This document shows, one piece after another, positions 1 through 64,000 of a stretch of DNA of 64,000 nucleotides. A program made the translations under genes and the position numbers. A model generated the notes under the pieces. It was not told where the DNA came from and ran no database searches. It saw only the letters and a list, made by a program, of their open reading frames with translations. The DNA comes from an uncultured bacterium. Lineage in GTDB: Bacteria > Armatimonadota > Abditibacteriia > Abditibacteriales > Abditibacteriaceae. The stretch lies in NCBI GenBank assembly GCA_963843795.1, contig CAWJLW010000006.1, forward strand, positions 1,922,001 through 1,986,000, given 5' to 3'. Positions within the stretch are counted from its first letter, which is position 1. Every line of letters begins with the position of its first letter.

Positions 1-2085
1 CGCGCCACTAAATGGATTAAAGAAAATCTGCCGCACGCCAAAGTGTCGGGCGGCGTGAGCAACATCTCGTTTTCATTTCGCGGCAACAATCGCGTGCGCG
101 AAGCGATGCACGCGGCGTTTTTGAAACATGGCGTCGATGCCGGTTTGGATATGGGCATCGTCAACGCGGGAATGTTGGAAGTTTACGAAGCCGTCGCGCC
201 CGATTTGCTCGAAGCGGTCGAAGACGTTTTATTGAATCGTCGCGCCGATGCTACTGAACGATTATTGGAAATGGCCGAGCGCGTCAAAGCGGAAAGTTCG
301 GGTGAAGTGGCCGAAGTCAAAACCGAAGCGTGGCGTGAAGAAACGCCCGAAGAACGTTTAAAATATGCTTTGATTAAAGGCATTGATTTATACGTTGAAG
401 CTGACGTTGAAGAAGTGCGCGTGCGTTTTCTGGAAGCGGGCAAAAAGCCGCTGGAAGTGATCGAAGGGCCGCTGATGGACGGCATGAACGTGGTCGGCGA
501 TTTGTTCGGCGCGGGCAAAATGTTTCTGCCGCAAGTCGTGAAATCGGCGCGCGTGATGAAAAAAGCCGTCGCGATTTTGCTACCTTATATGGAAGCCGAA
601 AAGCAGCGCACCGGTGCGCGCGCTCAGGGCAAAGTGCTTCTGGCAACGGTGAAAGGCGATGTGCATGATATTGGCAAAAACATCGTCGGCGTGGTTTTGG
701 GCTGCAACAATTACGAAGTGATTGATCTGGGCGTGATGGTATCTTGCGACAAAATTTTGCAGACCGCGCGCGAAGAAAACGTTGATGTGATTGGGCTTTC
801 GGGCTTGATTACGCCGAGTTTGGATGAAATGCAGCAAGTCGCGCGCGAAATGCAACGACTGGATTTTCAATTACCGCTGCTGATTGGCGGTGCAACAACC
901 TCGCGCATTCATACCGCCGTTAAAATCGCGCCGCATTATGAGCGCCCGATTATTCATGTTCTGGACGCCAGTCGCGCGGTCGGCGTCGTCAGCCAACTTT
1001 TATCGGACGATCAACACGATGAATTTATCGAGCGAATTAGCAACGAACAAGAGCGCGACCGCACGGCGCATTTGAATAAACGCGATAAAAAACCGCTGCT
1101 GTCGATTGAAGAAGCACGCGCGCGCAAAAATCCTATCGAATGGAAAAGCGAAGACATTGCCTCACCACCGTTCACTGGTTTCAAGGTGCTGCAAAACATT
1201 CCCTTAGAAGAATTGCTGCCGTTCATCGACTGGACACCGTTTTTCAACGCTTTTGAATTGAAAGGTTTGTATCCTGAAATTTTCGAGGATGAAACGGTTG
1301 GGGAACACGCCAAGAATTTGTTTGACGATGCACAGCAAGTACTTGCGGGCATCGTGCGCGGCAAACGTCTGCGCGCCAATGCGGTTTACGGTTATTACGC
1401 CGCCAACGCGGTCGGCGATGATGTTGAAATTTACGCGACCGAAGCGCGCGATAAAGCGGCAACGACATTTCATTTTCTGCGCCAGCAAATTGATAAAGCC
1501 GAAGGGCGTTTCGACAACAGCTTGGCCGATTTCATCGCGCCCAAAGAAACTGGTTTACCCGATCATCTGGGCGCTTTTGCGGTTACTGCGGGCATCGGTT
1601 TGGAAGAAATCGTGATGAAATACAAAAGCGCGCACGATGATTACAATGCTTTTATCGCTCAAGCTCTGGCCGACCGTTTGGCCGAAGCCACAGCCGAATG
1701 GCTTCATGCGAAAGTGCGGCGCGAATGGTATGCGCCGAACGAGGAATTGTCGAATCAGGAACTGATTGGTGAGAAATATCGCGGTATTCGTCCGGCTCCG
1801 GGCTATCCGGCGTGCCCGGATCATACCGAAAAAACGCTGCTGTTCGATTTGATGGACGTGCCGCATAAAGCGGGCATCACGCTCACGGAAAGTTACGCGA
1901 TGACACCAGCTTCTTCGGTGTCGGGTTTCTATTTCGCTCATCCGCAAGCGCGATATTTCGCGGTTGGTAAAATCGAGCGCGATCAAATGTTGGATTATGC
2001 CAAGCGCAAAAATTTAGATGCGCGCGAAATTGAGCGGGTGTTGTCGCCGAATTTGAATTACGAGCCGGATGCAATTGTGAAATGA
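1..2085 (+). CDS. metH: B12-dependent methionine synthase (5' truncated by window edge)
   Basis: Frame open from base 1 ([21 protein letters not shown]); cobalamin-binding motif GDVHDIGKN; activation domain [12 protein letters not shown]. Confidence 0.97.
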
Positions 2086-2163
2086 ACTTTTCGACTCGTG
2101 CAAGTACTTGCAATGTGTCCCAATGCGCACCAAGTACTTGCCCAGTCGAGCACACCAATTTCC

Positions 2164-3048
2164 ATGAGCTTAGAATCTTTTTCTTTGCCCTACGTGCGCT
2201 GGGCCGACGTCGCGGTGATGAGTCCGCATTATCTGACGCCAATGCGTCGGCTGTATGATCACGAATTAGTTTATGTGTTGGGCGGCCACGGCACGATCAC
2301 TATCGAGAATCGGAAATATTCGGCTCAGGCCGACCAATTGTATCTGATTATGCCACACGTCCGACACTCGTTCATCGCTGCTATCGACGAAAAAATGCCG
2401 TTACTTGGCGTGCATTTCGATTGGAAATTTTATGACGATGCGATGCCGTTTCCAATTCAATATCCCAGCGATGAACCCGCACGCAACGCGCCTACCTGCC
2501 CGACTTCCACTATTGAAAATTGGGATATAAGTTGCAAACCATTTTTAGATTTGCGCGGAAGGCCGCGCGTTCGGCATTTGCTGGAAGAGCTTGTCGTCGA
2601 GCGCAATCGCAGTGATGACGAAGCGCAGCACATCAGCAGCGCTTTGTTGGCGCTGATACTGACCTGTATCGCGCGCGAAGCACGGCAGTTGCAGCAAATC
2701 GAACAAAATTCGCATTTGGGTGCTGATGCGATTCGGCGCGTCGAGCGCGCGCGCCAAATGTTGGAAAGCGAAGAAATTACCGACGTTGAAACGGTCGCCG
2801 CACAAGTTGGATGGAGCGGCGATCATCTGCGGCGCATGATGCGCGCTGTCCTGCAACAATCGCCCTATCAACTTCAAACCTCAGCGCGTTTGCGACGCGC
2901 GCGCGACCTTTTGCGCGACGAGAACTTGTCAATTGCACACGTTGCCATGCGCTGTGGCTTCGACGACGCTTCGCACTTTTCGCGCGTTTTTAAAAAAGAT
3001 TGCGGACTGACACCGCGTCAATTCCTCACCATGGCGAAGAAGATTTAA
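2164..3048 (+). CDS. AraC-family transcriptional regulator (cupin + HTH)
   Basis: N-terminal cupin (HELVYVLGG); C-terminal AraC signature CGFDDASHFSRVFKKDCGLTPRQF; ATG 2164 preferred because the upstream GTG lies in a palindrome. Confidence 0.9.
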   Translation: MSLESFSLPYVRWADVAVMSPHYLTPMRRLYDHELVYVLGGHGTITIENRKYSAQADQLYLIMPHVRHSFIAAIDEKMPLLGVHFDWKFYDDAMPFPIQYPSDEPARNAPTCPTSTIENWDISCKPFLDLRGRPRVRHLLEELVVERNRSDDEAQHISSALLALILTCIAREARQLQQIEQNSHLGADAIRRVERARQMLESEEITDVETVAAQVGWSGDHLRRMMRAVLQQSPYQLQTSARLRRARDLLRDENLSIAHVAMRCGFDDASHFSRVFKKDCGLTPRQFLTMAKKI

Positions 3049-3191
3049 TCTGCAAAACCAGAGTCGGTAATCTCCTATTTTGCAGATTTATGGCAACTCA
3101 AAATAATTATTGCCGGTTAAAATTCATGGCGAGCGAACAACAATTCCTCTGCAAGTACTTGCAGGAAGTGAAATCAAAGCGAGGAATCACA

Positions 3192-4115
3192 ATGACACAA
3201 AATATTGAACCCATGATTAACGACGAACAAGTGCAGCAATTTCAGCGCGACGGATATTTGGTAGTGCGCAGTTTTTTGTCACCCGAAGAAAACGCCAATC
3301 TGCGCGAGCATTTCATGAAAATGCAAAGCGACGCTTCGCAGCCAGAACATCCTGTACGCAAACATTATCAAGTTCAGACGATGGAAGAAGCGCAGGGCGA
3401 TGTGCTGCGTGTGTTTCCGCGCGTGATGATGCCGCATCGCTTCGACAAAACAAGTTTGGAAATGATGCTAGATGCGCGCACTGAATCCGTTTTGAACGCA
3501 CTTTTCGGCGAACAAGCGATTGCCGCGCAGTCGATGTTTTATTTCAAGCCGCCGGGCGCGCGCGGTCAAGCGTTGCATCAAGATAATTTCTATCTCAAGG
3601 TTTCGCCCGGCACCTGCATGGCGGCGTGGTTTTCGATTGACGACGCCGACGACCAGAACGGCACGCTATTCGTGGTTCCGGGTTCGCACACCGGCGAAAT
3701 TCAATGTCCGCACGCTGCAGATTTGAAAACTTCGTTCACCACCGAAGAAGTCGATATTCCCGAAGGCATGGAACAAGTTCCGGTCAATTTGAAAGCGGGC
3801 GATGTGCTGTTTTTTAACGGCGCGTTGATTCACGGTTCATATCCCAACGCGACCAAAGACCGTTTCCGCCGCTCTTTCATTTGTCATTACGTGCCCGAAC
3901 GCATGACGGCCATGAATTCGGGTTATTACCCGCTGCACTCGTTCGATGGCAAAACTTTCACGCGCGACGTGGCCGAAGGTGGCGGCATTTGCGGAACCGA
4001 AGAATGGCAACGCTTTCAAGACGGAATCGCCGCACAGAAAGTTGAGCACAGCCGCGATATGGAATGGCTCAAACGCTCCGCAGTCGGCGACAAAACCAAA
4101 ACCACCGCGCACTAG
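3192..4115 (+). CDS. Phytanoyl-CoA dioxygenase (PhyH)-family Fe(II)/2OG dioxygenase
   Basis: QFQRDGYLVV start motif, HQD motif (ALHQDNFY), distal His (LIHGS); RBS GAGGA before ATG 3192. Confidence 0.9.
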   Translation: MTQNIEPMINDEQVQQFQRDGYLVVRSFLSPEENANLREHFMKMQSDASQPEHPVRKHYQVQTMEEAQGDVLRVFPRVMMPHRFDKTSLEMMLDARTESVLNALFGEQAIAAQSMFYFKPPGARGQALHQDNFYLKVSPGTCMAAWFSIDDADDQNGTLFVVPGSHTGEIQCPHAADLKTSFTTEEVDIPEGMEQVPVNLKAGDVLFFNGALIHGSYPNATKDRFRRSFICHYVPERMTAMNSGYYPLHSFDGKTFTRDVAEGGGICGTEEWQRFQDGIAAQKVEHSRDMEWLKRSAVGDKTKTTAH

Positions 4116-4207
4116 CAATTCTCCCAATCATCGCAGATCAACGAATTGGAAATAAATTACACAATGCTTGCCATTACTCGCAAGGTACTGAACCAAACAT
4201 TGTCCTC

Positions 4208-4247
4208 AAACCGACCGCACAACGAAACACGTTGTGCGGTCGGTTTT
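4208..4247 (+). terminator. Stem-loop, probable intrinsic terminator after the PhyH gene
   Basis: AAACCGACCGCACAACG-AAACA-CGTTGTGCGGTCGGTTTT. Confidence 0.65.
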
Positions 4248-4277
4248 CCATTAATTCCCACAACTGACTGGAATCTT

Positions 4278-5781
4278 ATGAAACCAAGTATCATTATGTC
4301 TTGCGCGATGGCAATTTCTGCCTCGCAAGTTACTTGCAGCGCCCGCCACGACGAAACTTCCAGTGCAAAAGCCGAATATCGTTCTCATTTACGCCGACGA
4401 CATTGGATGGGGCGACTTGAGCTGCTATGGCGCGAAAACCATCGCCACGCCTCACTCCGACCGCTTGGCCGCACAGGGCTTGCGTTTTACTAACGGTTAT
4501 TGCACGGCTTCGACTTGCACGCCTTCACGCTATTCGCTGCTTTCCGGCGAATACGCGTTTCGCAAAAAGGGCACGGGCATTCTGCAGGGCGATGCCGCGT
4601 TGATTATCGAACCCGGACGCCAGACGTTGCCCTCGATGCTTAAAGGCTCCGGTTACAACACGGCTGTGGTAGGCAAGTGGCATCTGGGTTTGGGCGGAGA
4701 AGGCGGGCCCGATTGGAACGGCGTAATTGCGCCCGGCCCGCTGGAAATCGGCTTTAACCAATCGTTTATTTTTCCCGCCACTGCTGATCGTGTGCCCACG
4801 GTGTACATCGAAGATCATCGAGTGGTGAATCTCGATCCCAACGATCCAATTCACGTCAGCTATCAGGGACCAATTGACGATGGGCCGACGGGAGCAAAAA
4901 ACCCGGAGATAGTGCGTTTGAAGCCGACCAATGCACAGCACAACAATTCAATTATTAACGGCATACCACGCATCGGCTACATGAGCGGCGGCAAAGCGGC
5001 GCTGTGGAAAGACGAAGATTTGGCTAAAACTTTCACCGCGCGCGCCGTGGATTTTCTGCAGAAACAATCAAAGGACAAACCTTTCTTTTTGTATTTTCCC
5101 ACCCATAATAATCATTCTCCGCGCGCTCCCGACCCGCGTTTCGTGGGTAAAACTCCTCACGGTCCGCGGGGCGATGCGGTTATCGAATTCGATTGGATGG
5201 TGGGCGAAATTCTCGATACGCTGGATCGATTGAAGTTCACCGACAACACCCTTGTGATACTTTCAAGCGATAATGGTCCGGTCGTAATCGACGGCTATTA
5301 TGACGGCGCGGAGCGTTTGCTGGGCGATCACAAACCAGCCGGGCCATTTCGCGGTGGAAAATACAGCGCGTTCGAGGGCGGCACAAAAATTCCTTTCATC
5401 GTGCGGTGGCCCGGACACATCGCGCCCGGCATTTCCGAAGCGATGATTTCGCAAGTCGATTTGCTGGCTTCATTGGCCGCTTTAACTGGCCAAACCGTCA
5501 GTGCCCAAAGCGCGCCCGATTCTCAAAACCAGTTGCCCACAATGTTAGGACAAGATAAGGTCGGACGCAACGAAATGGTCGAACTGGGGCTGGGCAACAG
5601 ATTCGGATTGCGCGTGGGGAAATGGAAGTTGATTGCCAAAGAGAACGAGAAGCCGCAATTGTATGATTTGTCCACCGATATTGCTGAAAGCGAGAATTTA
5701 GCCGAGCAAAAGCCTGAACAGTTGCAGCGAATGCGCACGCGGCTTCAGGAAATTCTTAGCGCCCACCAAGCAACAAAATGA
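4278..5781 (+). CDS. Secreted arylsulfatase (Cys-type); +1 frameshift at ~4330 separates signal peptide from catalytic domain
   Basis: KPNIVLIYADD, CTPSR, GKWHLG, SSDNG motifs in ORF 4363-5781; removing one T at 4330/4331 gives MKPSIIMSCAMAISASQVLA-APATTKLPVQKPNIV from ATG 4278. Confidence 0.88.
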
Positions 5782-5841
5782 AAACGTGCTGCTTTTACAG
5801 GGCAAGTACTTGCCGTAGTGATTTATGAGGAGGAAACGAGC

Positions 5842-6663
5842 ATGAAGACGAAAAGGTTTTTGCCTGCTTTCACACTGGCACTTTTTCTATTGGGTTGCGG
5901 TCAAAGTGCGACAAAGAGTGCCGACGGAAAGGTCGCTGCAGTCGAACAGGTCGCGGCCAATGAGGAAACTCAGAAAATGAAACCGAACTCTGTGCAACTG
6001 CTTTTTGATGCTTTGCGCATGAAATGGCCCAATAACCGCACCATCAATCTGGTTTTTCACGGGCACAGCGTGCCCTCGGGCTATCATAACACTCCACTGG
6101 TCAAGCCGTTCGAGTCGTATCCGTTCATGGTTTTTCAAGGCATGAACGAGCGCTTTCCGACTGCAGTTCTCAACTGCATCACCAGTGCAATTGGCGGCGA
6201 AAATTCGGTGCAGGGCGCTGCGCGCTTCGAGCGCGATGTGCTGCCGTATCATCCCGATTTGCTTTTTATAGATTATGCAATCAACGACCGTAATCTCACA
6301 GTTGAAGACGCCGAAAAAGCGTGGCGTTTGATGATTGAAAGCGCGCAAAAAAATCAAATCCCGCTGGTGCTAGTTACCCCGACCGGCACACGCGCCAACA
6401 AGTTTGACGACCCAACCGACGCGCTTTCAATTCGCGCCGCCATGATTCGCAGATTGGGCCAGGAATACAACCTACCCATCGCCGATGTGAGCGCGCGTTG
6501 GCAAGCGGCTTTGAAAGCGGGCACAGATCAGGAAACTTTGCTCAGTCAGCCAGTTCATCCCAGCCGGCAAGGACACATCATCGCGGCTAAAGAAATTCTA
6601 CGCGTGATTGATGAAATGAACGCCACAACAATCGAGACAGCTTTATCAGCCCAGAAGTCGTAA
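5842..6663 (+). CDS. SGNH/GDSL hydrolase-family lipoprotein
   Basis: Lipobox FLLGC; blocks FHGHSV, AIGGENS, DYAIND, PVHPS; RBS GAGGAGG. Confidence 0.85.
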   Translation: MKTKRFLPAFTLALFLLGCGQSATKSADGKVAAVEQVAANEETQKMKPNSVQLLFDALRMKWPNNRTINLVFHGHSVPSGYHNTPLVKPFESYPFMVFQGMNERFPTAVLNCITSAIGGENSVQGAARFERDVLPYHPDLLFIDYAINDRNLTVEDAEKAWRLMIESAQKNQIPLVLVTPTGTRANKFDDPTDALSIRAAMIRRLGQEYNLPIADVSARWQAALKAGTDQETLLSQPVHPSRQGHIIAAKEILRVIDEMNATTIETALSAQKS

Positions 6664-6710
6664 CGCGAAAAAGCGCTCTGCAAGTACGTGCAGAGCGCTT
6701 TTTCGCGTTA
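6661..6710. terminator. 50-bp near-perfect palindrome centred on motif variant TGCAAGTACGTGCA; bidirectional terminator candidate
   Basis: 25-bp arms with one mismatch, between convergent genes. Confidence 0.75.
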
Positions 6711-6737
6711 AAATGGCGGACGATTCACTCAACGCCT

Positions 6738-8174
6738 TCAGTTGTCATCTGCAGCCGTAGCGATGACATCGTTTTCGCGCCACCAGGGAATAAAGGCCGC
6801 ATTATTGGCGTTCCAATCGCGCCAACTTTGCAGCAATCGAGCGACGATTTTGGGATTGGCGTTGGCGACATCATTTTTCTCGCCGATGTCTTTGGTCAAG
6901 TTGAACAATCGGCGTTCGCCTTTGGCTTCCTGCACCATTTTCCAATCGCCCTCGCGCACGGCCCACGAGCCATTGAAATGACGCCAGAACAACCGTTCGT
7001 GCGGCGTGCCTTTATTCGCTCCCTTCAAGAAGGGCAACAGATCGACGCCTTCGATACCCGGCATTCCGACGGTCTTTACTCCGGCTGCGGCCAACGCAGT
7101 CGGCACGAAATCAAGCGTACTGACCGGCTTATCGTAACGCTTGCCTGCCGGAATTTGACCGGGCCACGAAACCACAAACGGCACGCGCACGCCGCCTTCC
7201 CACACTTCACCTTTACGACCGCGCAAAGGCGCATTGGATGAAGAATTGTCTTGCGGCGGGCCACCATTATCCGAAATGAAATAAATCAGCGTGTTGCTTT
7301 CGAGCTTTAATTCTTTGAGCTTGGCGCGCAAGCGTCCGATGCCATCATCCATTGCCAGCATCATCGCCGCGTAAGTTTTGCGGCCTCCCTTGAGTGTGTC
7401 CGGCACGCGCGCCAGATATTCCGGCGAAGCTTCCATCGGCGTGTGCGGCGCATTGTAAGCCAGATATAGAAAAAACGGCTCCGCTTTGTGACGCTCGACG
7501 TAAGAAACGGCTTCATCAGACAATACATCGGTCAGGTAGCGCTTCTCGGTTCCAGGCACAATTTCGCTGTTGCGTAGCAGCGGCGCTTCGTAGTCGCCCC
7601 ATTTGCTATTGATACGTTCTTCGGTTTTTTCCGGCGGAGTTGGCGTCCATTGCCAATAGCGATGGCCGCCACGCAGAAAACCGAAAAACTCGTCGAATCC
7701 ACGTTTATTGGGATGAAAATAAGGATTGCTGCCCAGATGCCACTTGCCAATGATGCCGGTTTTATACCCCGCGCTTTTCATGGCATCGCCCATCGTGCGC
7801 TCGGAAAGCGGCAAGCCAATCGCGGGATTAGTTCTGGTATCACCATCGGCGTTGGTATCGTAACCCATTCGCGCGCCGTGACGTCCGGAAATGAAACCGG
7901 CGCGCGACGGCGAACAAACGGGAAACGTTACATAACCCGCCGTGCAAATCACGCCGCTGCCTGCCAACGAATCGAGGTTGGGCGTCGCGATTTCCTTGCT
8001 GCCCATAAATCCCGCATCAGCATAACCCTGATCATCGCTGACAATCAGAATCACATTGGGTTTTTTGTTAATTCGCACCTTTATGTTCTGTGCGTTAGCG
8101 CTTTGGACTTGTCCTGGAGGCGCACAGAACGCCAAAGTAAGGGCGGGAAACAGAAAAGTGGGAATTTTGTTCAT
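6738..8174 (-). CDS. Secreted sulfatase (Cys-type, arylsulfatase A/N-acetylgalactosamine-sulfatase-like)
   Basis: Signal peptide; KPNVILIVSDDQG, CSPSR, GKWHLG, ISDNGG motifs. Confidence 0.93.
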   Translation of the reverse strand: MNKIPTFLFPALTLAFCAPPGQVQSANAQNIKVRINKKPNVILIVSDDQGYADAGFMGSKEIATPNLDSLAGSGVICTAGYVTFPVCSPSRAGFISGRHGARMGYDTNADGDTRTNPAIGLPLSERTMGDAMKSAGYKTGIIGKWHLGSNPYFHPNKRGFDEFFGFLRGGHRYWQWTPTPPEKTEERINSKWGDYEAPLLRNSEIVPGTEKRYLTDVLSDEAVSYVERHKAEPFFLYLAYNAPHTPMEASPEYLARVPDTLKGGRKTYAAMMLAMDDGIGRLRAKLKELKLESNTLIYFISDNGGPPQDNSSSNAPLRGRKGEVWEGGVRVPFVVSWPGQIPAGKRYDKPVSTLDFVPTALAAAGVKTVGMPGIEGVDLLPFLKGANKGTPHERLFWRHFNGSWAVREGDWKMVQEAKGERRLFNLTKDIGEKNDVANANPKIVARLLQSWRDWNANNAAFIPWWRENDVIATAADDN

Positions 8175-8291
8175 GGGGAAAAGCGTAATTAGGATTGCAT
8201 CAGCGAATTAAAGATTGAAAAAGCAAAAAGCCACCCACAAGTTCGGAGAGGCCTTTTGCCTTTAAAGTTTCACCCGGCTAAATCGGACATT

Positions 8292-9143
8292 TCATTCGTC
8301 GTCGGCAGTAAATCCGATGAGAACATTTTTGCCATTGACATTTTTGCTTTCGCTCATCTGCGAAACTTTCAGCGATTTGACATGACCATCGGCATAAAGC
8401 ATGTTAACGGTTTCCAAATGGCGCATCGCGATGGCCGCACCGTAGTTGGTTCCAACGTTCATCGCCTTGGTTCTGTCGGCATTGACCTGATAAGGCGTGT
8501 TGTAATCATCGAAGGAGATGCGGAATTTGCCGCGCGCTGGGCCAGCTGTATCATTGGGAGCGCTATCCATCACCCAAAATGTCGTGGCCGGAGCTTGCAA
8601 CGCAGCAATTGATTGACCCGAAGCGCCATTTGCAGCACCGTTGGCATAGCAATTGTTGAGGCCATAAGAGCCGAAATAAGCCGATGAATTGGCGGTTAAT
8701 GTCTCAGCCGGTCGAAACTCGGTGGTGTAAGTGCCGCTGGCAATAGTGACAGTAGAATCTGAAGGACACGTAAAAAGCTGGGTGCTTTTTATATAAGGCT
8801 GCACCGCATCCATCCATTTGTAGCGCGGTGGGTTCGCGGCTCCATTGGAAAAACCATCGTTACCGCCAGCCGCATACGGGTAATAAGCGTTCACCATCTG
8901 CTCGTCATAATCTTGCACGTATTGCAGCAAACCTAAACCAAGCTGTTTCAAATTGCTTGAACAGCTCGCGCGCCGCGCATTTTCCCGCGCACGTGCAAAT
9001 ACAGGAAACAAAATCGCCGCCAGAATTGCGATGATTGCTATCACAACTAACAGTTCGATAAGGGTGAAGCCCAAACGACGCTGTTGACTGGAACCAATAC
9101 CGATACCGACACTACAGCTGCGAAATTTTAAATTCAATGTCAT
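8292..9143 (-). CDS. Prepilin-type N-terminal cleavage/methylation, DUF1559/H-X9-DG protein
   Basis: [44 protein letters not shown]-terminal [24 protein letters not shown] before ATG 9143. Confidence 0.92.
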
Positions 9144-9226
9144 TAACGACCTCCTGCACAGCGGCGGCATCTGGCGCGACTGCGCAGACGGAATTCCTGT
9201 TTGACCGCATTGTGTAATAGGGAGTA

Positions 9227-9356: not shown

Positions 9357-9480
9357 TATCGCAAGGTTTCACACCAAAAACACCCTGCAAGTTCTTGCAG
9401 GGTGTTTTGCAACCGACGACTGTGACATTGCCAGAAATTGAAATGCCCTACTCGCCAGAAACCAAATTGAATTCGTTGAT

Positions 9481-55744: not shown

Positions 55745-55763
55745 AACCAAAACTTTGCTATCA

Positions 55764-55797
55764 AAAATGGCTCTGCAAGTACTTGCAGAGCCATTTT
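55764..55797. repeat. 34-bp perfect palindrome centred on the motif
   Basis: AAAATGGCTCTGCAAGT|ACTTGCAGAGCCATTTT. Confidence 0.95.
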
Positions 55798-55836
55798 GCT
55801 TTTCTCGACCTTAATTTCCAACAAAATTTTCCCTTG

Positions 55837-57009
55837 ATGTCACTTTCATCCTTTCCATTCTTCACGCGCACCATTTCACTTTTATGCGCCGCTTTGACTT
55901 TAAACGTCTTCCAAACGGCTTTCGCCCAGAACAGCCACAACGTGCCGCGCACTGTAGATGTCACAGAATTTGGCGCACTGGGCGATGGCAAAGCCGATGA
56001 CACCGTTGCTTTACAGCGCGCTTTGGATTCGCTCCAAAATGGAGCCACCTTAGTCATTCCCGCAGGAAAAATCTATCGCCACAGCGATGTTCTCACGATT
56101 CGCCACGCGGGCGTGCATCTGCGCGGGCCGGGAACGTTGCTAGCGACCGAGGAAGCCAAATCGGCGCTGACGATTGAAGCTGACAACGTTCTTATTGACG
56201 GCGGTCTGGAACTGAAAATTAATCAAACCACGCGGCGTTGGGATGCACCCGCTCAGAATAAATTGAACTTGATGAACTCCAGTGGAGCAATTGTGCGTGG
56301 AGTTTCAATTGATGGCTCGGCAGCGGCGGGCATTTTTGCTTTCGGCGCATCGAATTATCTAATTGAAGACGTAACGGTTAAAAATACGCGTGCCGACGGC
56401 ATTCACAACACTCACGGTTCGCATCACGGCACAATTCGCCGCGCACATGTGCGAAACGTCGGCGACGACGGCATTGCCATCGTTTCTTATGGTCAAGACA
56501 AAGAATGGTGCCACGATATCGAGATCGATTCTCCGCGCTTCTACGGCAATATGTGGGGGCGCGGCTTCACGGTCGTGGGCGGCGAAGATATCACATGGCG
56601 CGACATTTATGCCGAAAGTTCCAACGCGGCGGCCTTGTATATTGCTGTTGAAGGCGAGCCGTGGAACACGCATCCGACCAAGCGCGTGAAGGTTTTGGGC
56701 GGCGAATTAAAAAACTCCAATCTCAGTGCGACTGTCGATCATGGCGCCCTTTTGATTTACAATGCGCGCCCCAATTACGCCATCGAAGACGTGCTGATTG
56801 AAAACCTGAAAATTACCGATACCAACCCGAAAGCGTCGCGCCAAATCGGAATTTTAGTTGGCAATAGCGGCGGGGTAAAAAACGTGCAGTTGAAAAATTT
56901 CACCATCGCAAATGGCCCGACCAATCTTTTCGTTTCTGATGCGTCCAAAGAAAATTTCAGCACCAACAATTGGACTTTTAACGGTGCAGAAAAGTCGGTT
57001 AGAAAATAA
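55837..57009 (+). CDS. Secreted right-handed beta-helix (pectate lyase superfamily) protein
   Basis: Signal peptide; VTEFGALGDGKADDTVALQRA; ADGIH, GDDGIA repeats. Confidence 0.88.
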   Translation: MSLSSFPFFTRTISLLCAALTLNVFQTAFAQNSHNVPRTVDVTEFGALGDGKADDTVALQRALDSLQNGATLVIPAGKIYRHSDVLTIRHAGVHLRGPGTLLATEEAKSALTIEADNVLIDGGLELKINQTTRRWDAPAQNKLNLMNSSGAIVRGVSIDGSAAAGIFAFGASNYLIEDVTVKNTRADGIHNTHGSHHGTIRRAHVRNVGDDGIAIVSYGQDKEWCHDIEIDSPRFYGNMWGRGFTVVGGEDITWRDIYAESSNAAALYIAVEGEPWNTHPTKRVKVLGGELKNSNLSATVDHGALLIYNARPNYAIEDVLIENLKITDTNPKASRQIGILVGNSGGVKNVQLKNFTIANGPTNLFVSDASKENFSTNNWTFNGAEKSVRK

Positions 57010-57091
57010 AAAATACCCTTGCAAGTACTTGCGCTGTGGTTTAAAATGAAATGTCGCTCATCGTGCACATTTTCGAAGGTGAGCAACAAAT

Positions 57092-57169
57092 GGCGAATGT
57101 AGCTCAGTTGGTTAGAGCGCGGGATTGTGGTTCCCGAGGTCGTGGGTTCGATCCCCATCATTCGCCCCA
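57092..57169 (+). tRNA. tRNA-His(GTG)
   Basis: G-1, acceptor stem GCGAATG/CATTCGC, anticodon stem CGGGA-TTGTGGT-TCCCG, GTTCGA T-loop, C73, encoded CCA. Confidence 0.96.
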
Positions 57170-57173
57170 AATC

Positions 57174-57215
57174 AAAACGCCCATCTTGAATCAAAATTTC
57201 GAGATGGGCGTTTTT
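57174..57215 (+). terminator. Intrinsic terminator after tRNA-His
   Basis: AAAACGCCCATCT...AGATGGGCGTTTTT. Confidence 0.8.
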
Positions 57216-57305
57216 GCTAGCAGTTTTTAACGCTTTCCCAGCGTAATCTGAGCGCGCATGTGCAGATTACGCTAAAATGTGGCGCGCGTTTTTCAATTCC
57301 ACATC

Positions 57306-58832
57306 ATGGCACTTTCTACTCTCCATCCGTCCGCCGAACGCCACACCACAGCGCCCAATAGCGAATCGCTCAAGATTCTTTTTGTGGCTTCAGAATGTGC
57401 ACCTTTGGCCAAAAGCGGCGGCTTGGGTGATGTCGTCGCGGGGTTGTCCAAAGCGCTGCGTACGCTTGGTCATGATGCGCGCATTGTGCTTCCACTTTAC
57501 AGTTCTATCGACCGCGAACGCTTCGGTATCAGCTTTCAAAGTACTTCATGCGTCCACATGGGCGCGGGAGAAGAACAATGGGTCGGAATTTTTAAAACGA
57601 CGCTCGACGGCGTGCCAGTCTGGCTAATCGAGTGCGATAAATTTTTCGCCCGCCCCGGTTTATACGATGGCGAGGGGGGCGAATATCTTGACAACGCTTA
57701 CCGTTTCGGTTTACTGTCCAAAGCCGCGTTGCAGGTGTGTAAAGATCGCGCGTGGTTTCCCGACGTGGCGCATTTGCATGATTGGATGACCGCGCCCACT
57801 GCAGCATTTTTGAAGACGTGGGATCGTTTTTTATCACCGCTTTCGCAAACCGGCAGCGTATTGACGATTCACAACATCGGTTATCAGGGCACATATTCGC
57901 CCGATGTTTTGAAATATTACGGCATGAGCGGCGAACTTTTCGCGCCCGATATCTTCGAGGCGCACGGGCAGGTCAATCTGCTCAAAGCGGGCATTCATTT
58001 CGCCGACGCCATCACTACAGTTTCGCCCACCCACGCGCGTGAAATTCTCACACCCGCTGGCGGACAAGGCTTGGCGCCCTATTTATCGAACCGATCAAAC
58101 GATGTTTTCGGCATTTTGAACGGCGCCGATTACGATTTGTGGAGTCCCGAAAGCGACAAATTAATCCCTGCCAATTATTCGGCCCAAGATTTGAGTGGCA
58201 AAGCCGAATGCAAACGTGAATTGCAGCGTCGTTTCGGTTTAGAAGAGCGAGACGACTTACCAATTGTTGGCGTCGTATCGCGCTTTGCTTCGCAGAAAGG
58301 TTTCGACCTGATTATGGAAATGCTGCCGCGCGCCTTGGACGAAATGGCAATGCAGTTCGTCGTACTGGGCACTGGCGATAACTACACCGAAGAATTTTTC
58401 CACTGGATGCTTCACACCAAGCGCAATGCGGGCGGCTTTATCGGCTTCTCGAACGAACTGAGCCATCTTATCGAAGCGGGCAGCGACTTTTTCCTGATGC
58501 CTTCGCTTTACGAACCCTGCGGTTTGAATCAGATTTATTCGCTGAAATACGGCACGCTGCCTATCGTGCACGCAACTGGCGGACTGGATGACACCGTCGA
58601 AAATTACGATGAAAACAGTGGCAGCGGGACGGGTTTCAAATTTTGGGATAACAATGCTGCTTCGCTGTACTACACGTTAGGCTGGGCAATTTCGACGTGG
58701 TGGGACAGACCTCAACATTACCAGCAGTTGCAGCAGAACGCGATGGCGCAGCATTTTTCGTGGGACGCCGCCGCGCCCAACTATCTGCCAGTTTATCGGC
58801 ACGCGATGGAAAACCGACGCAAGCATTTATAA
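57306..58832 (+). CDS. glgA: Glycogen synthase
   Basis: KSGGLGDV, HLHDW, TIHNIGYQG, PSLYEPCGLNQ. Confidence 0.95.
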   Translation: MALSTLHPSAERHTTAPNSESLKILFVASECAPLAKSGGLGDVVAGLSKALRTLGHDARIVLPLYSSIDRERFGISFQSTSCVHMGAGEEQWVGIFKTTLDGVPVWLIECDKFFARPGLYDGEGGEYLDNAYRFGLLSKAALQVCKDRAWFPDVAHLHDWMTAPTAAFLKTWDRFLSPLSQTGSVLTIHNIGYQGTYSPDVLKYYGMSGELFAPDIFEAHGQVNLLKAGIHFADAITTVSPTHAREILTPAGGQGLAPYLSNRSNDVFGILNGADYDLWSPESDKLIPANYSAQDLSGKAECKRELQRRFGLEERDDLPIVGVVSRFASQKGFDLIMEMLPRALDEMAMQFVVLGTGDNYTEEFFHWMLHTKRNAGGFIGFSNELSHLIEAGSDFFLMPSLYEPCGLNQIYSLKYGTLPIVHATGGLDDTVENYDENSGSGTGFKFWDNNAASLYYTLGWAISTWWDRPQHYQQLQQNAMAQHFSWDAAAPNYLPVYRHAMENRRKHL

Positions 58833-58910
58833 AAAATTGCGCGTGGCAAGTTCATATGCAAGTACTTGCGCAAGAACTTGCCACGTATAATTGAACAAGG
58901 CGACAAAGGA

Positions 58911-59945
58911 ATGAACGTGACACAAGATAGTGAAGTAAAAGTGCAAGACAAAACTATAACAACGCAGCCCGATTTTTGGCGCGACCGTCCGGTTTTCGTG
59001 ACCGGCGCGACCGGTCTGGTCGGTTCTTGGCTGGTGCATCGTTTGCGTGATGCGGGTGCAGACGTAGTCTGTCTGGTGCGCGACTGGGTGCCGCAGAGCG
59101 CTTTGGTGCGCGACGGACAATTACTGGATGTGAAAGTCGTACACGGCGATTTGCAAGACAGCGCTCTGCTCGAACGCGCGCTGGGTGAATACGAAATCGC
59201 GACGGTTTTTCATCTGGGCGCACAAACTATCGTCACGACAGCCAACCGCAATCCTGTTCCCACGTTTGAAGCCAATATCGGCGGCACATGGACGCTTTTG
59301 GAAGCCTGCCGCCGCTGCCAGACTGTTGAGCAAATCGTCGTCGCTTCATCCGATAAAGCCTACGGCGCCAGCGATACGCTGCCTTACGATGAAAATACGC
59401 CGCTGCGCGGCCAGCATCCTTACGACGTGTCGAAATCTTGCACCGATTTAATTTCGCAAACCTACGCGCATTCTTACGATATGCCAGTTTCGATCACGCG
59501 TTGCGGCAACTTTTATGGCGGCGGCGATTTGAACTGGAATCGCATCGTGCCAGGTACAATTCGTTCGGCCCTGCGCGGTCAGGCTCCGGTGATTCGTTCT
59601 GACGGACAGTTTGTGCGCGATTATTTTTATGTCGAAGATGGCGCGGCGGCTTATATGCTTTTAGCCGAAAAGCTCAAAGATGATCCGAGCTTGAACGGGC
59701 AAGCTTTCAACTTTTCCAACGAAGTGCAAATTACAGTTCTGGAACTTGTCGAGCACATTTTAAAGGCGATGGATTCCAATTTGAAGCCCGAAGTTTTAAA
59801 CCAGGCTTCCAACGAAATTCGCCACCAGTATCTCAGCGCCGAAAAGGCGCGCACCGAATTGGACTGGGCACCACTTTTCACGCTCGATGAGGGCCTGAAA
59901 CGCACCATCGCGTGGTATCGCGATTTCCTGGAAAACAAAAGTTAA
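58911..59945 (+). CDS. NDP-sugar 4,6-dehydratase (CDP-glucose 4,6-dehydratase-like extended SDR)
   Basis: [30 protein letters not shown]. Confidence 0.9.
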
Positions 59946-59947
59946 AA

Positions 59948-60024
59948 CAACCGAAATATGAAAGTCAAAAAGGCGTGCTGCAAGTAACTTGCAGCACGCC
60001 TTTTTGACTTTCATATTTCGGTTG
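59948..60024. repeat. 77-bp palindrome (38-bp perfect arms, 1-nt centre) around TGCAAGTAACTTGCA
   Basis: CAACCGAAATATGAAAGTCAAAAAGGCGTGCTGCAAGT-A-ACTTGCAGCACGCCTTTTTGACTTTCATATTTCGGTTG. Confidence 0.95.
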
Positions 60025-60028
60025 CGTT

Positions 60029-60385
60029 TCACTTGCCAGTCACACGCTGTTTCCATTCATCGACATCTTCGAACACCACGCGAATGCGATTGGTGCGATC
60101 ATCGCTGGGATAAACCGCATTAACTTTCAGCATCGCTTCGTTAGGTGGTGTGGCGCACAACACGCGAATCATCACTTGTTTGGCAGCAGTTTTCGGATAC
60201 TCCTGCGCGAATTCTGCGCTTAAAACGAAATTCACATACGCCGATAATTTATCGACCAACATATTGAAGCGCGTCGCTTCATCTTGAATCGAACCGGCGT
60301 CGATAATCATTAAGTCGAGGCCGTTGGGCGTGCCGTCCAGCGACTTGGTCATCATGTCTATCGTTTCAGTATTTTCAATTCCCAT
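60029..60385 (-). CDS. Hypothetical protein, DUF6572-like
   Basis: MGIENTETID...LVDKLSAYVNFV...EYP pattern recalled for that family; RBS GGTAG. Confidence 0.6.
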   Translation of the reverse strand: MGIENTETIDMMTKSLDGTPNGLDLMIIDAGSIQDEATRFNMLVDKLSAYVNFVLSAEFAQEYPKTAAKQVMIRVLCATPPNEAMLKVNAVYPSDDRTNRIRVVFEDVDEWKQRVTGK

Positions 60386-60511
60386 CTTCTACCTATCCAA
60401 TCAAAATCAACCGCCAAGAGCGTGAAGTATTTTCCCGAATTCTCTCTGCAAGTACTTGCAAGGAAACTTTTCAAAATGCACGTTGCGCCTTTTGCGGTAA
60501 ATTATGAGTTT

Positions 60512-62104
60512 TTATCGTAAATCGACTTGGCGCGCGCCGAACAAATCGGCCTGCGCGTTCAATTTGTCCAACACATCTTGGCCAACGGGTTCTTCCAGCG
60601 AAATTACCATGACGGCGCGTTCGCCAACTTGCTTGCGGCCCACTTCCATCGCGCCGATATTGATGCCGCTTTGCCCCAAAATCGTGCCGACGACGCCGAT
60701 CATGCCGGGTTTGTCGGTGTTGGGCAGAATGAGCAACGTGCCGCACGGAGCGACATCGACGCGCAAGCCTTGAATGCCGACAATGTGCGCTTCGCGGCCG
60801 TTGAAAATCGTGCCCTCAATCGAGCGCACGCGCTGATGTCCGTTATCGTTGCGCGTGACGCGGGTTTCGATCAGGTTCGCGTAATTGCCGCTCTTGTTCT
60901 GCTTGGCTTCCTTGATTTCGATGCCGCGCGATTGCGCCAATTGCGGCGCGTTTACATAACTCACGGTCTGCTCGAACGCGCCTTGGAGCAAACCTTTCAA
61001 GAACACGCGTGTCAAAGCTGACGTATCGTGCGCGTCCAGTTCGCCGCAGTAATTCAATTCGATGGCTTCGATGCGGCCATCGGCAATCTGCGCTTGCATG
61101 CGGCCCAATTTTTCGGCGAGCGGCAAATACGGCGTGAGAAATTCTTTGGTTTCGGGAGGTAGAGGCGGCAAATTAACCGCGCTTTGCGGCGGGCGACCGG
61201 CTAAAACCTCGACGATTTGACGCGCGACATCAACTGCGACTTCGACTTGCGCTTCTTCGGTTGAAGCACCCAGATGCGGCGTTAAAATCACATTCGGCAA
61301 CCCCAGAAGCGGCGAATCGGTCGGAGGTTCGGTCTCGTAAACGTCCAAACCGGCACCGCCCAATTTGCCCGAACGCAGAGCTTCGTATAAAGCCATTTCG
61401 TCGATGATTCCACCACGCGAGCAGTTGAGAATCATCGCGCCGCCTTTCATTTTCTGAATCGATTCGCGGCTAATCAAATGGCGCGTTTCGGGCGTGAGGG
61501 GCGTGTGCAACGTCACGAAATCGCTGTGGAGAAGCACGTGTTCAATGCTGCCAGCCTCGATTTGCAACTGATTGGCGCGTGCGGAAGTCAAAAACGGATC
61601 GTAGCCAATAACTTTCATGCCAAAGCTCTGCGCGCGCTTGGCGACTTCAACGCCGATGCGACCGACGCCGATAACGCCCAGCGTTTTGCCGTAAAGCTGC
61701 GAACCGAGAAATTTCGAGCGCTGCCATTCGCCTGCAGCAACACTGCTATGCGCGGGCAAAAGCTTGCGCACCAAAGCTAGCATCATGCCCAGAGTCAGTT
61801 CAGCTACCGCGACCGTATTGCCCGCAGGAGAATTAACCACGATGACACCGCGTTCGGTCGCAGCTTCGACATCGATGTTATCGACCCCAACACCAGCGCG
61901 CCCGACGATTTGCAGCTTGCTGGCGGCTTCAAGCACGGAGCGCGTGATTTTGGTTTGCGAGCGCACCATGATAGCATCAAAGCGCGCCGCGCGCGCGATA
62001 AGTTCGGCTTCTTTCAATCCGGTTTCGACCACGACGTTTCCGGCGCGACGCAAAATTTCCAGACCTTCGCCAGCGATGGGATCGCAAATGAGAATTTCAG
62101 GCAT
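60512..62104 (-). CDS. serA: D-3-phosphoglycerate dehydrogenase (long form, ACT domain)
   Basis: GRAGVGVDNID, GVGRIG, TPHLGAST, DKPGMIG. Confidence 0.96.
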   Translation of the reverse strand: MPEILICDPIAGEGLEILRRAGNVVVETGLKEAELIARAARFDAIMVRSQTKITRSVLEAASKLQIVGRAGVGVDNIDVEAATERGVIVVNSPAGNTVAVAELTLGMMLALVRKLLPAHSSVAAGEWQRSKFLGSQLYGKTLGVIGVGRIGVEVAKRAQSFGMKVIGYDPFLTSARANQLQIEAGSIEHVLLHSDFVTLHTPLTPETRHLISRESIQKMKGGAMILNCSRGGIIDEMALYEALRSGKLGGAGLDVYETEPPTDSPLLGLPNVILTPHLGASTEEAQVEVAVDVARQIVEVLAGRPPQSAVNLPPLPPETKEFLTPYLPLAEKLGRMQAQIADGRIEAIELNYCGELDAHDTSALTRVFLKGLLQGAFEQTVSYVNAPQLAQSRGIEIKEAKQNKSGNYANLIETRVTRNDNGHQRVRSIEGTIFNGREAHIVGIQGLRVDVAPCGTLLILPNTDKPGMIGVVGTILGQSGINIGAMEVGRKQVGERAVMVISLEEPVGQDVLDKLNAQADLFGARQVDLR

Positions 62105-62215
62105 GATAAAAAGTTTGACTGCTCCAAATTTTGAAATACTATGAGTTGTTATTGAATTTATTGAATCGCCCGCAGTTTAGCCAATTCTGACGCTGCGTTT
62201 AGCCCTTAAATCATC

Positions 62216-64000
62216 ATGCAAGTACTTGCACCGCGTTTTTCACTCTGCTTTCTGTTACTGCTCTGCACTTTCGCGCGCGCCCAAAACGGGGCGGATAATT
62301 GGCAAAAATTTCTTGCGCCACCAGAGCTATCGCCAACCAACTTTCTTTTCACGGTTCAATCCAATGGCGATCAGGCCGAAGGGCAACTTCTGCTGGGGCA
62401 AGATGGCTCGTGGCAGGTGCAAGTACTTGCTGGGCCAAATCCAGCGCGCGCAATTATCGGCAATGGCAAAGAAACGCGCGTTGTGGATAACGCGACCAAA
62501 CGCGTGCAACGCTTCGATTTCGATGCGCTGAATGAATGGTTTCGGGGCTTCGATGTAGACAACGGCGGGCCGGCGAACGTTTGGCTACGGCCTTCACCGC
62601 AACTGGTCGCGCAAAATTACGATGTAAAAATGAGCAGCGTTGGCGGGCAAACCGTGCTCGATTTGACCGCTAATGCGCGTGGCAGGTACTTGCAGCGCGA
62701 GGGCGTTCTGGTCGGCGGTGCCGGCGGCGGACGTTATTACGCGGCGCGCAAGATTCCGGCTTGGAACCGACCTTATCGCATTCAATTGAAATTTTCGGCT
62801 CCGCAAGTACTTGCCATGCGCACCGATTTCGCGCCCGATAATCGGGTGTTGCAAATGCTGGATTACAGCTACGAAAACGCGCGTCCAAAAACCATCACAG
62901 TGCGCGATGCCGATAAACGTGTGCTGGCGACGTGGAGTTATCAGTGGTCAACACCTGATCCAACCGCACCCCCCGGTTTTGTCCTGCCCGATGCGCCAAT
63001 TATCGAAGAAAACACCCCAGGCGAAAATTTCGCCAATCAGGCGTCGCAGGTGTGGAATCAGGGCGTGATTCAAACGCGACGGGAAGATTGGCGCTCGGCG
63101 TTGGCTTCGTTCGCACGCGCCGGACAACTCGCGCCCGCAGCGTTAGCTGCGCCCAGCGCGCAGTTCGATGCCGCGCTGCAAGTGCGAGATACCGCAGCAA
63201 CTTTGGATGCCTTGGCGCACATCGCGAAAATCGCGGGCGACAGCGATTATGAAACCATTTCGCGTCGCTTGCGCTGGTACAGCTTGCAACGCGATTCAAC
63301 CGCGGCGCGCGCCGATTTAAATGCGCTGGCTGCCGATAAAACGCCACGTTCGCAATGGCTGCGCGCGACGACGTGGCGCACTTTGGGCGACCAAGCCGCT
63401 GCCGTTCAAGCGGCCCGCGAGACTTTGGATAATCCGCAAACGCCAGCTAGTCTCGCTTTCGATGCCGCCGCATTTTTGATTGAAATCGCGCCCGCGACTT
63501 TGGCCGCCGAAATCGAAAAAAATACAACCAACGCTCCCGCGCATCAAATTGCCGCACGTTTACTGCGCAACCAAGTCACACCCTTGAGCGCCGCACAACT
63601 CCAAGAAAATGTCACACATGTACGCGCGCTGGTCTTGGTGGCGCGCACGTTGGAAGCACGCGGAGAGGACACGACAACGGTCTGGCAAAAAATCGTGGAC
63701 ACGGCGACAACTCCGCTGCAACAAATCGCGCAACGCCAATTGATGGCGCTGGCCGCACAGCGCGGTGATGCCCCCGCAAGTCTCACGATTTACACCGATT
63801 TGGCTGGGAATTTGAGCGACAACGATGTGGCGAGTTTGCAAAATTACTTGTTCAACGCGTGGGATAAATCAGGCAACATCGAAAAGCTGCGCGTTTCGAT
63901 GCAGAATCGCGCCATCAGCGTGCGCGCCCCTAGTTCCGACGCGCGTTTGTGGCTGGCTTATCAGCAGCAATACGCAAGCGCGGAGGAAGTTGCCAACAGC
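62216..64000 (+). CDS. Secreted protein with TPR-like helical repeats (3' truncated; absent from ORF track)
   Basis: Manual translation from ATG 62216: MQVLAPRFSLCFLLLLCTFARA-QNG..., WNQGVIQTRREDWRSALASFARAGQLAP; no stop seen before the window end. Confidence 0.75.
   Translation, partial: MQVLAPRFSLCFLLLLCTFARAQNGADNWQKFLAPPELSPTNFLFTVQSNGDQAEGQLLLGQDGSWQVQVLAGPNPARAIIGNGKETRVVDNATKRVQRFDFDALNEWFRGFDVDNGGPANVWLRPSPQLVAQNYDVKMSSVGGQTVLDLTANARGRYLQREGVLVGGAGGGRYYAARKIPAWNRPYRIQLKFSAPQVLAMRTDFAPDNRVLQMLDYSYENARPKTITVRDADKRVLATWSYQWSTPDPTAPPGFVLPDAPIIEENTPGENFANQASQVWNQGVIQTRREDWRSALASFARAGQLAPAALAAPSAQFDAALQVRDTAATLDALAHIAKIAGDSDYETISRRLRWYSLQRDSTAARADLNALAADKTPRSQWLRATTWRTLGDQAAAVQAARETLDNPQTPASLAFDAAAFLIEIAPATLAAEIEKNTTNAPAHQIAARLLRNQVTPLSAAQLQENVTHVRALVLVARTLEARGEDTTTVWQKIVDTATTPLQQIAQRQLMALAAQRGDAPASLTIYTDLAGNLSDNDVASLQNYLFNAWDKSGNIEKLRVSMQNRAISVRAPSSDARLWLAYQQQYASAEEVANS

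Follow-up and report, generated by a model that had tools for sequence, protein, structure and literature searches.

The stretch of DNA described here, referred to throughout as the window, comprises 64,000 bases of an Abditibacteriaceae genome (G000; 4,299,948 bases, 92% complete) at G000:C6:1922001-1986000, and along its length a 12-bp perfect palindrome, GCAAGTACTTGC, is repeated both within genes such as proC and hisS and in the spacers between genes (Table 1). The original prediction, which took this palindrome for a highly iterated chromosomal signal, had put the number of exact copies at about 35, and exactly 35 are found between positions 1335 and 62814, about 14 coding and 21 intergenic, with none of 100 dinucleotide shuffles having one. 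Twelve of the 35 copies extend to the full 14-mer TGCAAGTACTTGCA, and 46 matches are found when up to one mismatch is allowed (chance mean 0.10). The roughly 15 variants with a single change that had been proposed correspond to 11 substitutions and 5 single indels; the variants do exist, but five of the positions cited for them were off by one, the true starts being 6680, 9387, 26347, 36580 and 48128. It should be noted that the copy at 14671 sits inside an open reading frame (ORF; 13248-14816) that was missed by our gene caller, and that, among sequencing runs, no RNA run was listed for the window and two DNA runs from one study cover it piecemeal; as these two could contain the source sample, they are not counted as support. 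An Rfam search of the window returned tRNA only and the motif matches no Rfam family. The names carried by homologues assign the organism to Abditibacteriaceae.

Table 1. Copies of GCAAGTACTTGC in the window, their variants, and the genes and hairpins in which selected copies lie.
Feature	Position	Strand
GCAAGTACTTGC, exact copies (start positions)	1335, 2100, 3151, 5802, 9642, 14671, 14817, 17285, 19362, 20450, 21044, 22374, 22823, 23504, 27282, 29570, 32003, 33687, 34800, 35749, 39057, 39086, 40647, 43899, 48725, 50885, 51807, 53574, 55775, 57021, 58858, 60448, 62218, 62419, 62803	
GCAAGTACTTGC, one-substitution variants (n = 11, span 2130..62693)	2130, 6680, 9387, 17895, 26347, 34776, 36413, 36580, 48128, 58870, 62682	
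GCAAGTACTTGC, one-indel variants (n = 5)	4325, 11147, 41123, 53874, 59980	
Coding copy in B12-dependent methionine synthase	1335..1346	+
Coding copy in class II tRNA synthetase gene (Lys/Asp/Asn type, with KTSC domain)	9642..9653	-
Coding copy in proC (encodes PQVLA; G012 orthologue PQIVS, no gap)	21044..21055	-
Two coding copies (22374, 22823) in alanine-racemase-domain (YggS-like) gene	22374..22834	-
Coding copy in hisS (RKYLQ; same position occupied in L133 and L134, empty in G001)	35749..35760	+
Copy centring a perfect hairpin (13 extra pairs) between two minus-strand genes	29557..29594	
Copy centring a terminator-like hairpin with T run, after ruvB	31993..32024	+
Copy centring a bidirectional terminator-like hairpin (A run, GC arms, T run) between convergent genes	33675..33710	
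Copy centring a terminator-like hairpin (11 extra pairs)	55764..55797	+
Two copies, 29 bp apart, lying between dnaK and hsp20; no hairpin extension	39057..39097	
Exact copy followed immediately by a one-mismatch copy	58858..58881	

Abundance and placement in the genome

The enrichment is not restricted to the window, as GCAAGTACTTGC occurs 2,567 times in G000, where an order-5 Markov model built on the masked genome predicts 1.8 copies, and the commonest 8- to 16-mers of the genome are this word and its overlaps. A further 506 sites differ from it at one position, and the 2,567 exact copies compare with about 3,430 genes called using a simple hexamer model. Copies are found at 47–83 per 100 kb across contig C6, the first and last bins excepted. 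Plotting them relative to the replication origin and terminus (ori/ter), as had been proposed, reveals no gradient, with the density unrelated to where the GC skew turns (1.52 and 3.51 Mb), and neither strand polarity, the motif being palindromic, nor ori/ter confinement of the Chi/KOPS or parS/matS/Noc types is seen.

We were able to classify 2,558 sites: 764 in coding sequence, 1,226 in tandem spacers, 287 in convergent and 256 in divergent ones, and 25 that overlap the end of a gene. The densities in coding sequence and in tandem, convergent and divergent spacers are 0.21, 3.1, 4.4 and 1.9 per kb, respectively. This gives a coding share of about 30% and an intergenic share of about 70%, though both are approximate because the hexamer gene caller misses some genes. 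The coding sites favour one reading frame (502/144/118), and QVLA is found 573 times in G000 proteins compared with 29 times for the reversed ALVQ. A single codon string accounts for 561 of the 941 QVL tripeptides, despite requiring the rare codons GTA (7.6% of Val) and CTT (8.8% of Leu). When orthologues were aligned at G000 sites, 53 of 65 comparisons were gapless within 6 bases and protein identity was 35% at the sites compared with 65% overall, which indicates that sites arise mostly by substitution at permissive positions.

Many of the intergenic copies lie at the centre of hairpins. Extension by at least 6 pairs is seen at 190 of the 287 convergent sites, at 317 of the 1,226 tandem sites and at 31 of the 256 divergent ones. 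A T run is present in 147 of the 190 hairpin-centred convergent sites, and tandem sites peak 10–30 bp past stop codons. Such placement, and the preponderance of intergenic sites, would be expected of an RNA-level or transcription element (a terminator core or RNA-binding site), but we consider this very improbable given that the hairpin is absent at 909 of the tandem and 225 of the divergent sites, that the coding sites are found in all three frames and alter amino acids, and that the helical phasing of AT tracts and kilobase-scale spacing reported below are properties of DNA. As the extension is found only in a minority of sites, use in terminators is best regarded as co-option.

Extended flanks and even spacing

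The original prediction held that the flanks differ freely and that the conserved unit is the palindrome alone. This is not the case, as both sides of GCAAGTACTTGC carry a consensus which is GC-rich at +2..+5 and has AT-rich tracts at +8..+11 and +18..+21. At +9, +14 and +19 from the end of the core, the AT fraction is 0.78, 0.44 and 0.63 for 1,233 hairpin-free intergenic sites, and 0.64, 0.30 and 0.54 for 713 deep coding sites compared with 0.51, 0.38 and 0.48 for QVL controls. The AT tracts are helically phased, and the core plus flanks extends over about 50 bp.

The sites also repel one another and are spaced more evenly than chance. The mean gap in G000 is 1,578 bp with a coefficient of variation (CV) of 0.89, compared with 1.19±0.02 for a null which keeps the coding/intergenic split, and under the same null the variance/mean of site counts at 10 kb is 1.84 compared with the 0.65 found. 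Spacers of at least 50 bp hold 0.56–0.77 site whatever their length, and the density of coding sites climbs from 0.097 to 0.467 per kb between 0–250 bp and 2–3 kb from the nearest intergenic site. Site-pair counts are flat from 2 to 60 kb, giving no sign of periodicity in what is a coarser test than the published damped-sine analysis of the cyanobacterial highly iterated palindrome HIP1, and the helical phasing between neighbouring sites is weak (p 0.003–0.01) and is not relied on here. The two longest site-free gaps (26.5 and 25.7 kb) hold insertion sequence transposases and a type I restriction-modification (RM) locus, and small contigs with plasmid- or phage-type genes have 7–35 sites per 100 kb compared with 63 per 100 kb.

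Dialects among related genomes

We extended the comparison to a family set of 27 Abditibacteriaceae genomes (G000 and 26 relatives, several of which were sampled thinly). A survey of related genomes, as had been proposed, shows that the motif is respelled between species in a way that is not visible from the window alone, and the exact 14-mer TGCAAGTACTTGCA has one match across 40 relatives. The G000-type word is also present in two independent metagenome contigs from other organisms (L133 and L134; 80% RuvB identity, GC 62–63%), and hence the motif is not confined to one assembly. Other GTAC-centred dialects are found in six of the 26 family relatives, with the palindromes CAAAGTACTTTG in G001, TCGAGTACTCGA in G009, G015 and G019, and CGAGTACTCG in G012, the palindrome being perfect in these five genomes as it is in G000. 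Counts of AGTACT are bimodal, with 2,813–4,733 in six of the 27 genomes and 1–285 in the remaining 21. The sixth relative, G006, has 3,173 copies of GTACGGTCG, of which 88 of 135 sampled are inverted pairs (24–26 bp) and the others have a degenerate second half, and this word may be a half-site or one long palindrome. We note that the G006 half-site AAGTACGGT forms inverted-pair terminators (e.g. L036:3849-3874).

Three relatives have a GTAC-free word, the 9-mer GCAGCCACG, with 1,783 copies in G007, 1,411 in G018 and 972 in G016 and no more than 176 in other family members. The iterated form CAGCCACG (L037, L046 and L223 in G007, G016 and G018) is unpaired and often coding in G007, and in G016 it is often inside a longer inverted repeat resembling repetitive extragenic palindromic (REP) sequences; because it is partly REP-like in G016 and unpaired in G007, the GTAC-free word may represent something distinct. 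In 17 of the 27 genomes no iterated motif was seen, bearing in mind the thin sampling of several, and of these G017 has a weak excess of AAGTACTT only. Dialects cluster by phylogeny around the conserved core in a RuvB tree (FastTree, one gene, 32 rows), which includes six intein-bearing rows. The RuvB intein-like insertion (ending ...FNH or ...YNH, near Walker A) occurs in six family genomes across scattered genera (L020-L025; G014, G005, G020, G009, G021 and G010). Only one of 25 G000 sites coincides with a site of another dialect, and the one site that could be tested against L133 and L134, which share the G000 dialect, is common to both.

These comparisons bear on two further explanations. 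The first is an assembly or binning artefact, which might be suspected because of the many split genes in the assembly, including those of the pilus operon. It is refuted by the presence of the same motif in L133 and L134 with one site at an orthologous position, by dialects in nine other assemblies, and by the codon- and frame-aware placement of the sites. The second is a selfish repeat of the REP or miniature inverted-repeat transposable element (MITE) type spread by a transposase. REP sequences, which are accompanied by REP-associated tyrosine transposases (RAYTs), are short palindromes enriched downstream of genes, and the mostly intergenic location of our copies, the REP-like setting of CAGCCACG in G016 and the paired G006 word are reminiscent of these. 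However, the coding copies here are mostly gapless substitutions, no common element body extends beyond 12–16 bp, and the sole Y1 transposase match in G000 (C6:751935) is flanked by its own, different repeat and G006 has no match, and so this explanation has largely been refuted. The G000 Y1 (RAYT-like) transposase with its own REP pairs, unrelated to the motif, lies at G000:C6:751600-752480. The palindrome is not the end of a mobile element and, with no Rfam match, is not identified as a known repeat family.

A putative GTAC methyltransferase and a putative partner nuclease

G000 encodes one PF01555 methyltransferase (N6/N4 family) at C6:2517365-2518135, which has a DPPY motif and no nuclease neighbour, and matches to PF00145 and PF02086 were not found in the 92% complete genome. 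Its nearest solved relative is M.RsrI, the specificity of which is GAATTC. This word was rejected as a target of the G000 enzyme, as it shows no consistent depletion (observed/expected, O/E, 0.33–1.21 irrespective of the gene). A comparison with plasmid sequences found no close named relative (best 36%). Orthologues (>55% identity) are full-length in 20 of the 27 family genomes, interrupted in two and not found in five, and the cultured family member Abditibacterium utsteinense also encodes an orthologue. Among loci of other phyla with an orthologue, six of seven groups have GTAC as one of their six most depleted palindromic 4-mers (O/E 0.15–0.56), Poribacteria being the exception. In most of the verrucomicrobial (Prosthecobacter-type) loci inspected (L159-L232), the orphan methyltransferase gene is flanked by those for the large and small subunits of acetolactate synthase.

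In five loci (L155, L171, L193, L224 and L233) a gene for a 215-residue protein is convergent to the methyltransferase gene. This putative nuclease has no Pfam match, and a structural model (predicted local distance difference test score, pLDDT, 91) returned NhoI (Z 6.5), MutH (Z 6.4), DpnI and PvuII, with all values (Z 5.9–6.5) below Z 8 and Foldseek E > 0.1, which is suggestive only of a restriction-endonuclease-like fold. It was found in 13 of the 27 family genomes, where the GTAC O/E is 0.00–0.42, compared with 0.08–0.82 in the five genomes without both genes (values for relatives being taken from samples of 9–147 kb per genome). The nuclease was found in none of the seven GTAC-dialect genomes, all seven of which retain the methyltransferase, and among the 14 nuclease-free genomes the methyltransferase is kept in 7/7 with a GTAC dialect compared with 2/7 without. 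A signal-peptide-like N-terminus, as judged by hydrophobicity, is present in 10 of the 11 family nuclease copies with a readable start (G008 and G014 were left unscored); such an extension is absent from all of the 119 best-matching database homologues of an acidobacterial nuclease copy. The family copies (L234-L243 from G017, G003, G011, G041, G005, G042, G018, G013, G024 and G022, and L244 from G008) come from genomes nearly devoid of GTAC, and in G008 the nuclease gene lies between comEA and a pilT-like gene. It is possible that the family nuclease is a periplasmic restriction enzyme. A nuclease-family profile found no homologue in the six frames of G000 (best E 0.27), so the notion of a dead nuclease acting as the reader of the motif in G000 is unsupported.

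The original prediction had also raised methylation, and methylation-directed repair on the GTAC core in particular, as a cause. The link to a GTAC methyltransferase finds indirect support but repair as the driver is weakened. Under this explanation (Elhai's HIP ratchet), hemimethylated GTAC would direct mismatch repair and sites would accumulate around it, either as a by-product or as a signal. It would account for the retained orphan methyltransferase, a repulsion range of 1–2 kb would fit a repair tract, MutL is present in 5/5 genomes, and alternative cyanobacterial HIPs are reported to track methyltransferases (PMC4390886). We nonetheless think it improbable, as GTAC outside the motif is depleted in G000 (3,811 compared with 5,757 expected), one-mismatch variants do not spare the GTAC core (140 of 506 change it, about as often as the flanks), MutH was found in 0/5 genomes, and no iterated GTAC word is seen in the Prosthecobacter-type loci, which have the orthologous orphan enzyme. 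MutL also carries motifs which we take to resemble those of the endonuclease type, and this too speaks against it. A methyltransferase that recognises 4 bp cannot by itself give rise to a word of 12 bp, with eight specified bases beyond GTAC and phased flanks, and this, together with the depletion of GTAC elsewhere, calls for another reader whose footprint covers several helical turns.

Competence genes

G000 encodes ComEC, ComEA, DprA, secretins and a type IV pilus operon. In this operon (G000:C6:385799-402501) pilC, the prepilin peptidase gene and large pilus-associated genes are split, like other genes in the assembly, and these splits look like sequencing indels. G007, G012, G016 and G017, unlike G000 and G009, have a second large pilus-associated paralogue after the operon. 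The window itself contains three prepilin-type N-methyl/DUF1559 genes (8292-9338, 11167-11829 and 27302-27943).

A proposed self-DNA signal for natural transformation

The observations can be summarised as a 12-bp core with phased AT tracts which occurs about once every 1.6 kb, within genes mainly by substitution and in terminators, is missing from recent islands, and is respelled between species. They support the original prediction of a genome-wide signal of the HIP1 or DNA uptake sequence (DUS) kind that is the target of a sequence-specific factor. Of the explanations we have considered, we lean, with some reserve, towards GCAAGTACTTGC being a lineage-specific self-DNA signal for natural transformation (an uptake sequence in the broad sense), which would probably be read in its GTAC-methylated form. 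Saturation at one site per fragment, island deserts, terminator co-option, dialects and phased AT tracts all match uptake sequences. A competence-associated reader may bind the core and bend the flanks, DNA fragments with one site would then be taken up or recombined preferentially, and this bias would lead sites to accumulate until every fragment-sized interval holds one.

The core itself might have been supplied by an ancestral family GTAC RM pair. Lineages keeping the nuclease, now with the signal-peptide-like N-terminus, would have purged GTAC, and those losing the nuclease but keeping the methyltransferase would have built a positive signal around it. This leads to a bolder suggestion that we offer tentatively and think doubtful as a whole, namely that the family has a third, independent sequence-specific uptake system derived from a split GTAC RM pair, in which some members export the nuclease to the periplasm, where it would cut unmethylated GTAC and so purge the word, and others evolved a receptor for a methylated GTAC-centred 12-bp palindrome, with the flanks as dialects.

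A number of findings weigh against the transformation signal. The competence genes do not discriminate, as they are found family-wide with or without the motif (the pilus operon in all 20 genomes compared and ComEC in 27/27), and no receptor tracking the motif was found among 38 prepilin-like proteins of G000, the ComEA sequences or the pilus operons of the 20 genomes. We infer GTAC as the target of the methyltransferase and nuclease from word depletion, and the Fisher p values for the gene correlation (0.006 and 0.02) overstate it because the genomes fall in about two clades of a one-gene tree. There are also exceptions, with G004 and G007 keeping the methyltransferase without the nuclease or a GTAC motif, G016 having a motif without the methyltransferase, and G017 having the nuclease together with its weak AAGTACTT excess. 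Codon-atypical genes are barely site-poor (0.60 per kb in the lowest decile compared with 0.75–0.87 per kb), and a gap near the site was found in 12 of 65 orthologue comparisons compared with 7% in the background. The DUS of Neisseria and the uptake signal sequence (USS) of Pasteurellaceae are non-palindromic whereas the motif here is a perfect palindrome. Finally, a phage of unassigned host (G043) carries a near-identical, evenly spaced palindrome, and so an iterated palindrome of this kind can also appear in a phage, for which transformation is not an obvious cause.

The phage also bears on the main rival explanation, which is that GCAAGTACTTGC is the binding site of an abundant intracellular homodimeric protein which organises or protects the chromosome (a nucleoid protein, a structural maintenance of chromosomes (SMC) or replication factor, or a self marker for a defence nuclease) and is selected at about one site per 1–2 kb. 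A perfect palindrome with symmetric phased AT flanks would suit a wrapping dimer, the even spacing fits, HIP1 has been proposed to act in chromosome architecture (PMC5861425), and the phage record has 37 GCAAGYRCTTGC sites in 67.8 kb with a CV of 0.56. We judge this rather unlikely all the same, given the lack of an ori/ter gradient and of a pair-count period between 2 and 60 kb, the rapid respelling between sister species with so few sites shared across dialects, and the 17 family genomes in which no iterated motif was seen. The phage is itself an uncertain ally, as its proteins show no close tie to Abditibacteriaceae and the centre of its motif is degenerate. It is one of two related tailed phages (39% and 45% GC) with an iterated palindrome, G043 (L400-L403, 67.8 kb) having GTGCAAGYRCTTGCAC with 14 of its 37 sites inside ORFs and G044 (L404-L408) having a looser, clustered form, and these palindromes could be an operator array or mimicry of a host tag. 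In 300 other genomes of the phylum that were sampled there are no more than 15 copies each of GCAAGYRCTTGC, and no host for the phage motif was found among them. A scan of viral contigs with 16-mers gave six single matches, and a crude search found no array of clustered regularly interspaced short palindromic repeats (CRISPR).

Comparison with known signals

The transformation signal proposed here recalls the DUS of Neisseriaceae, with which it shares thousands of copies, of which about one third are coding (34.5% for N. meningitidis, as given in PMC2817400), a frame bias and peptide enrichment, and terminator co-option. It also shares an even spacing of about 1.5 kb (meningococcal DUS are reported at about 1,500 bp, matching the conversion tract length; PMC2397512), absence from recent acquisitions, and clade-specific dialects around a conserved core (eight are described for Neisseriaceae in PMC3630211). 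It differs in sequence and phylum, in that a perfect palindrome centres the hairpin here and an inverted pair forms the stem in DUS, and in that the core coincides with a putative methylation site. The H. influenzae USS (AAGTGCGGT) is described as a core with two helically phased T tracts (PMC3458573), and our motif likewise has a core with two phased AT tracts, though on both sides rather than one. Eight of the nine positions of the H. influenzae USS core are matched by the G006 half-site AAGTACGGT, but the one that is changed belongs to the critical GCGG inner core, and the resemblance may be coincidence.

Cyanobacterial HIP1 (GCGATCGC) is also a highly iterated palindrome with a retained orphan methyltransferase; it contains the methyltransferase site, as our motif may do, and a methylation-dependent gain in transformation has been reported for it (bioRxiv 2024.09.10.611283; PMC13756078). 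The motif here is not HIP1, as the word is different, CGATCG has an O/E of 0.2 in G000, and the host is not cyanobacterial. It is 12–14 bp long whereas HIP1 is 8, is about 15-fold denser between genes than within them, is respelled between species where HIP1 is conserved across a phylum, and shows no period of tens of kb in the pair counts, and the enzyme is of the N6/N4 family. In C. jejuni, RAATTY with CtsM is a palindromic methylation-dependent transformation signal with an orphan methyltransferase (as summarised in bioRxiv 2024.09.10.611283), where the 6-bp methylation site is the whole signal and occurs every ~60 bp. Our motif shares the palindromic signal and orphan methyltransferase, with a depleted 4-bp core within a 12-bp word, and self/non-self discrimination in transformation is the role of the Campylobacter system. 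HIP1 and the Campylobacter system provide a precedent for palindromic transformation signals that depend on methylation, and the self-DNA signal suggested here would resemble these two while having a USS-like architecture. Overall, the signal would appear to work like DUS or HIP but by its sequence or symmetry falls outside DUS, USS and HIP1.

We found no published description of the motif, or of an uptake sequence or palindrome in Abditibacteriaceae, and nothing on a periplasmic type II nuclease in transformation, in a literature search which left most subscription journals and, in the case of the motif, supplementary tables outside its reach. For Neisseriaceae and Pasteurellaceae, uptake signals that are both long and species-specific are well established, and what HIP1 does and how it arose has been an open question for three decades. 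The 27 genomes form a natural series of palindromic dialects, a paired form, a GTAC-free form and motif-free genomes with every methyltransferase/nuclease combination, so that comparison and simple assays can be used to test whether uptake signals originate from RM sites and to address the question of HIP versus DUS. It would, if true, be unusual in itself for incoming DNA to be screened by a restriction-type nuclease that has a signal peptide. In practical terms, the motif might open a way to transform these bacteria, and it provides a species-level binning marker.

Other features of the window

Two further features are noted in the window. The class II tRNA synthetase with a C-terminal KTSC domain extends over 9481-11106, and a tRNA-Ser called by ARAGORN inside the hsp20 ORF (39458-39540) is absent from the Rfam calls and is probably spurious.

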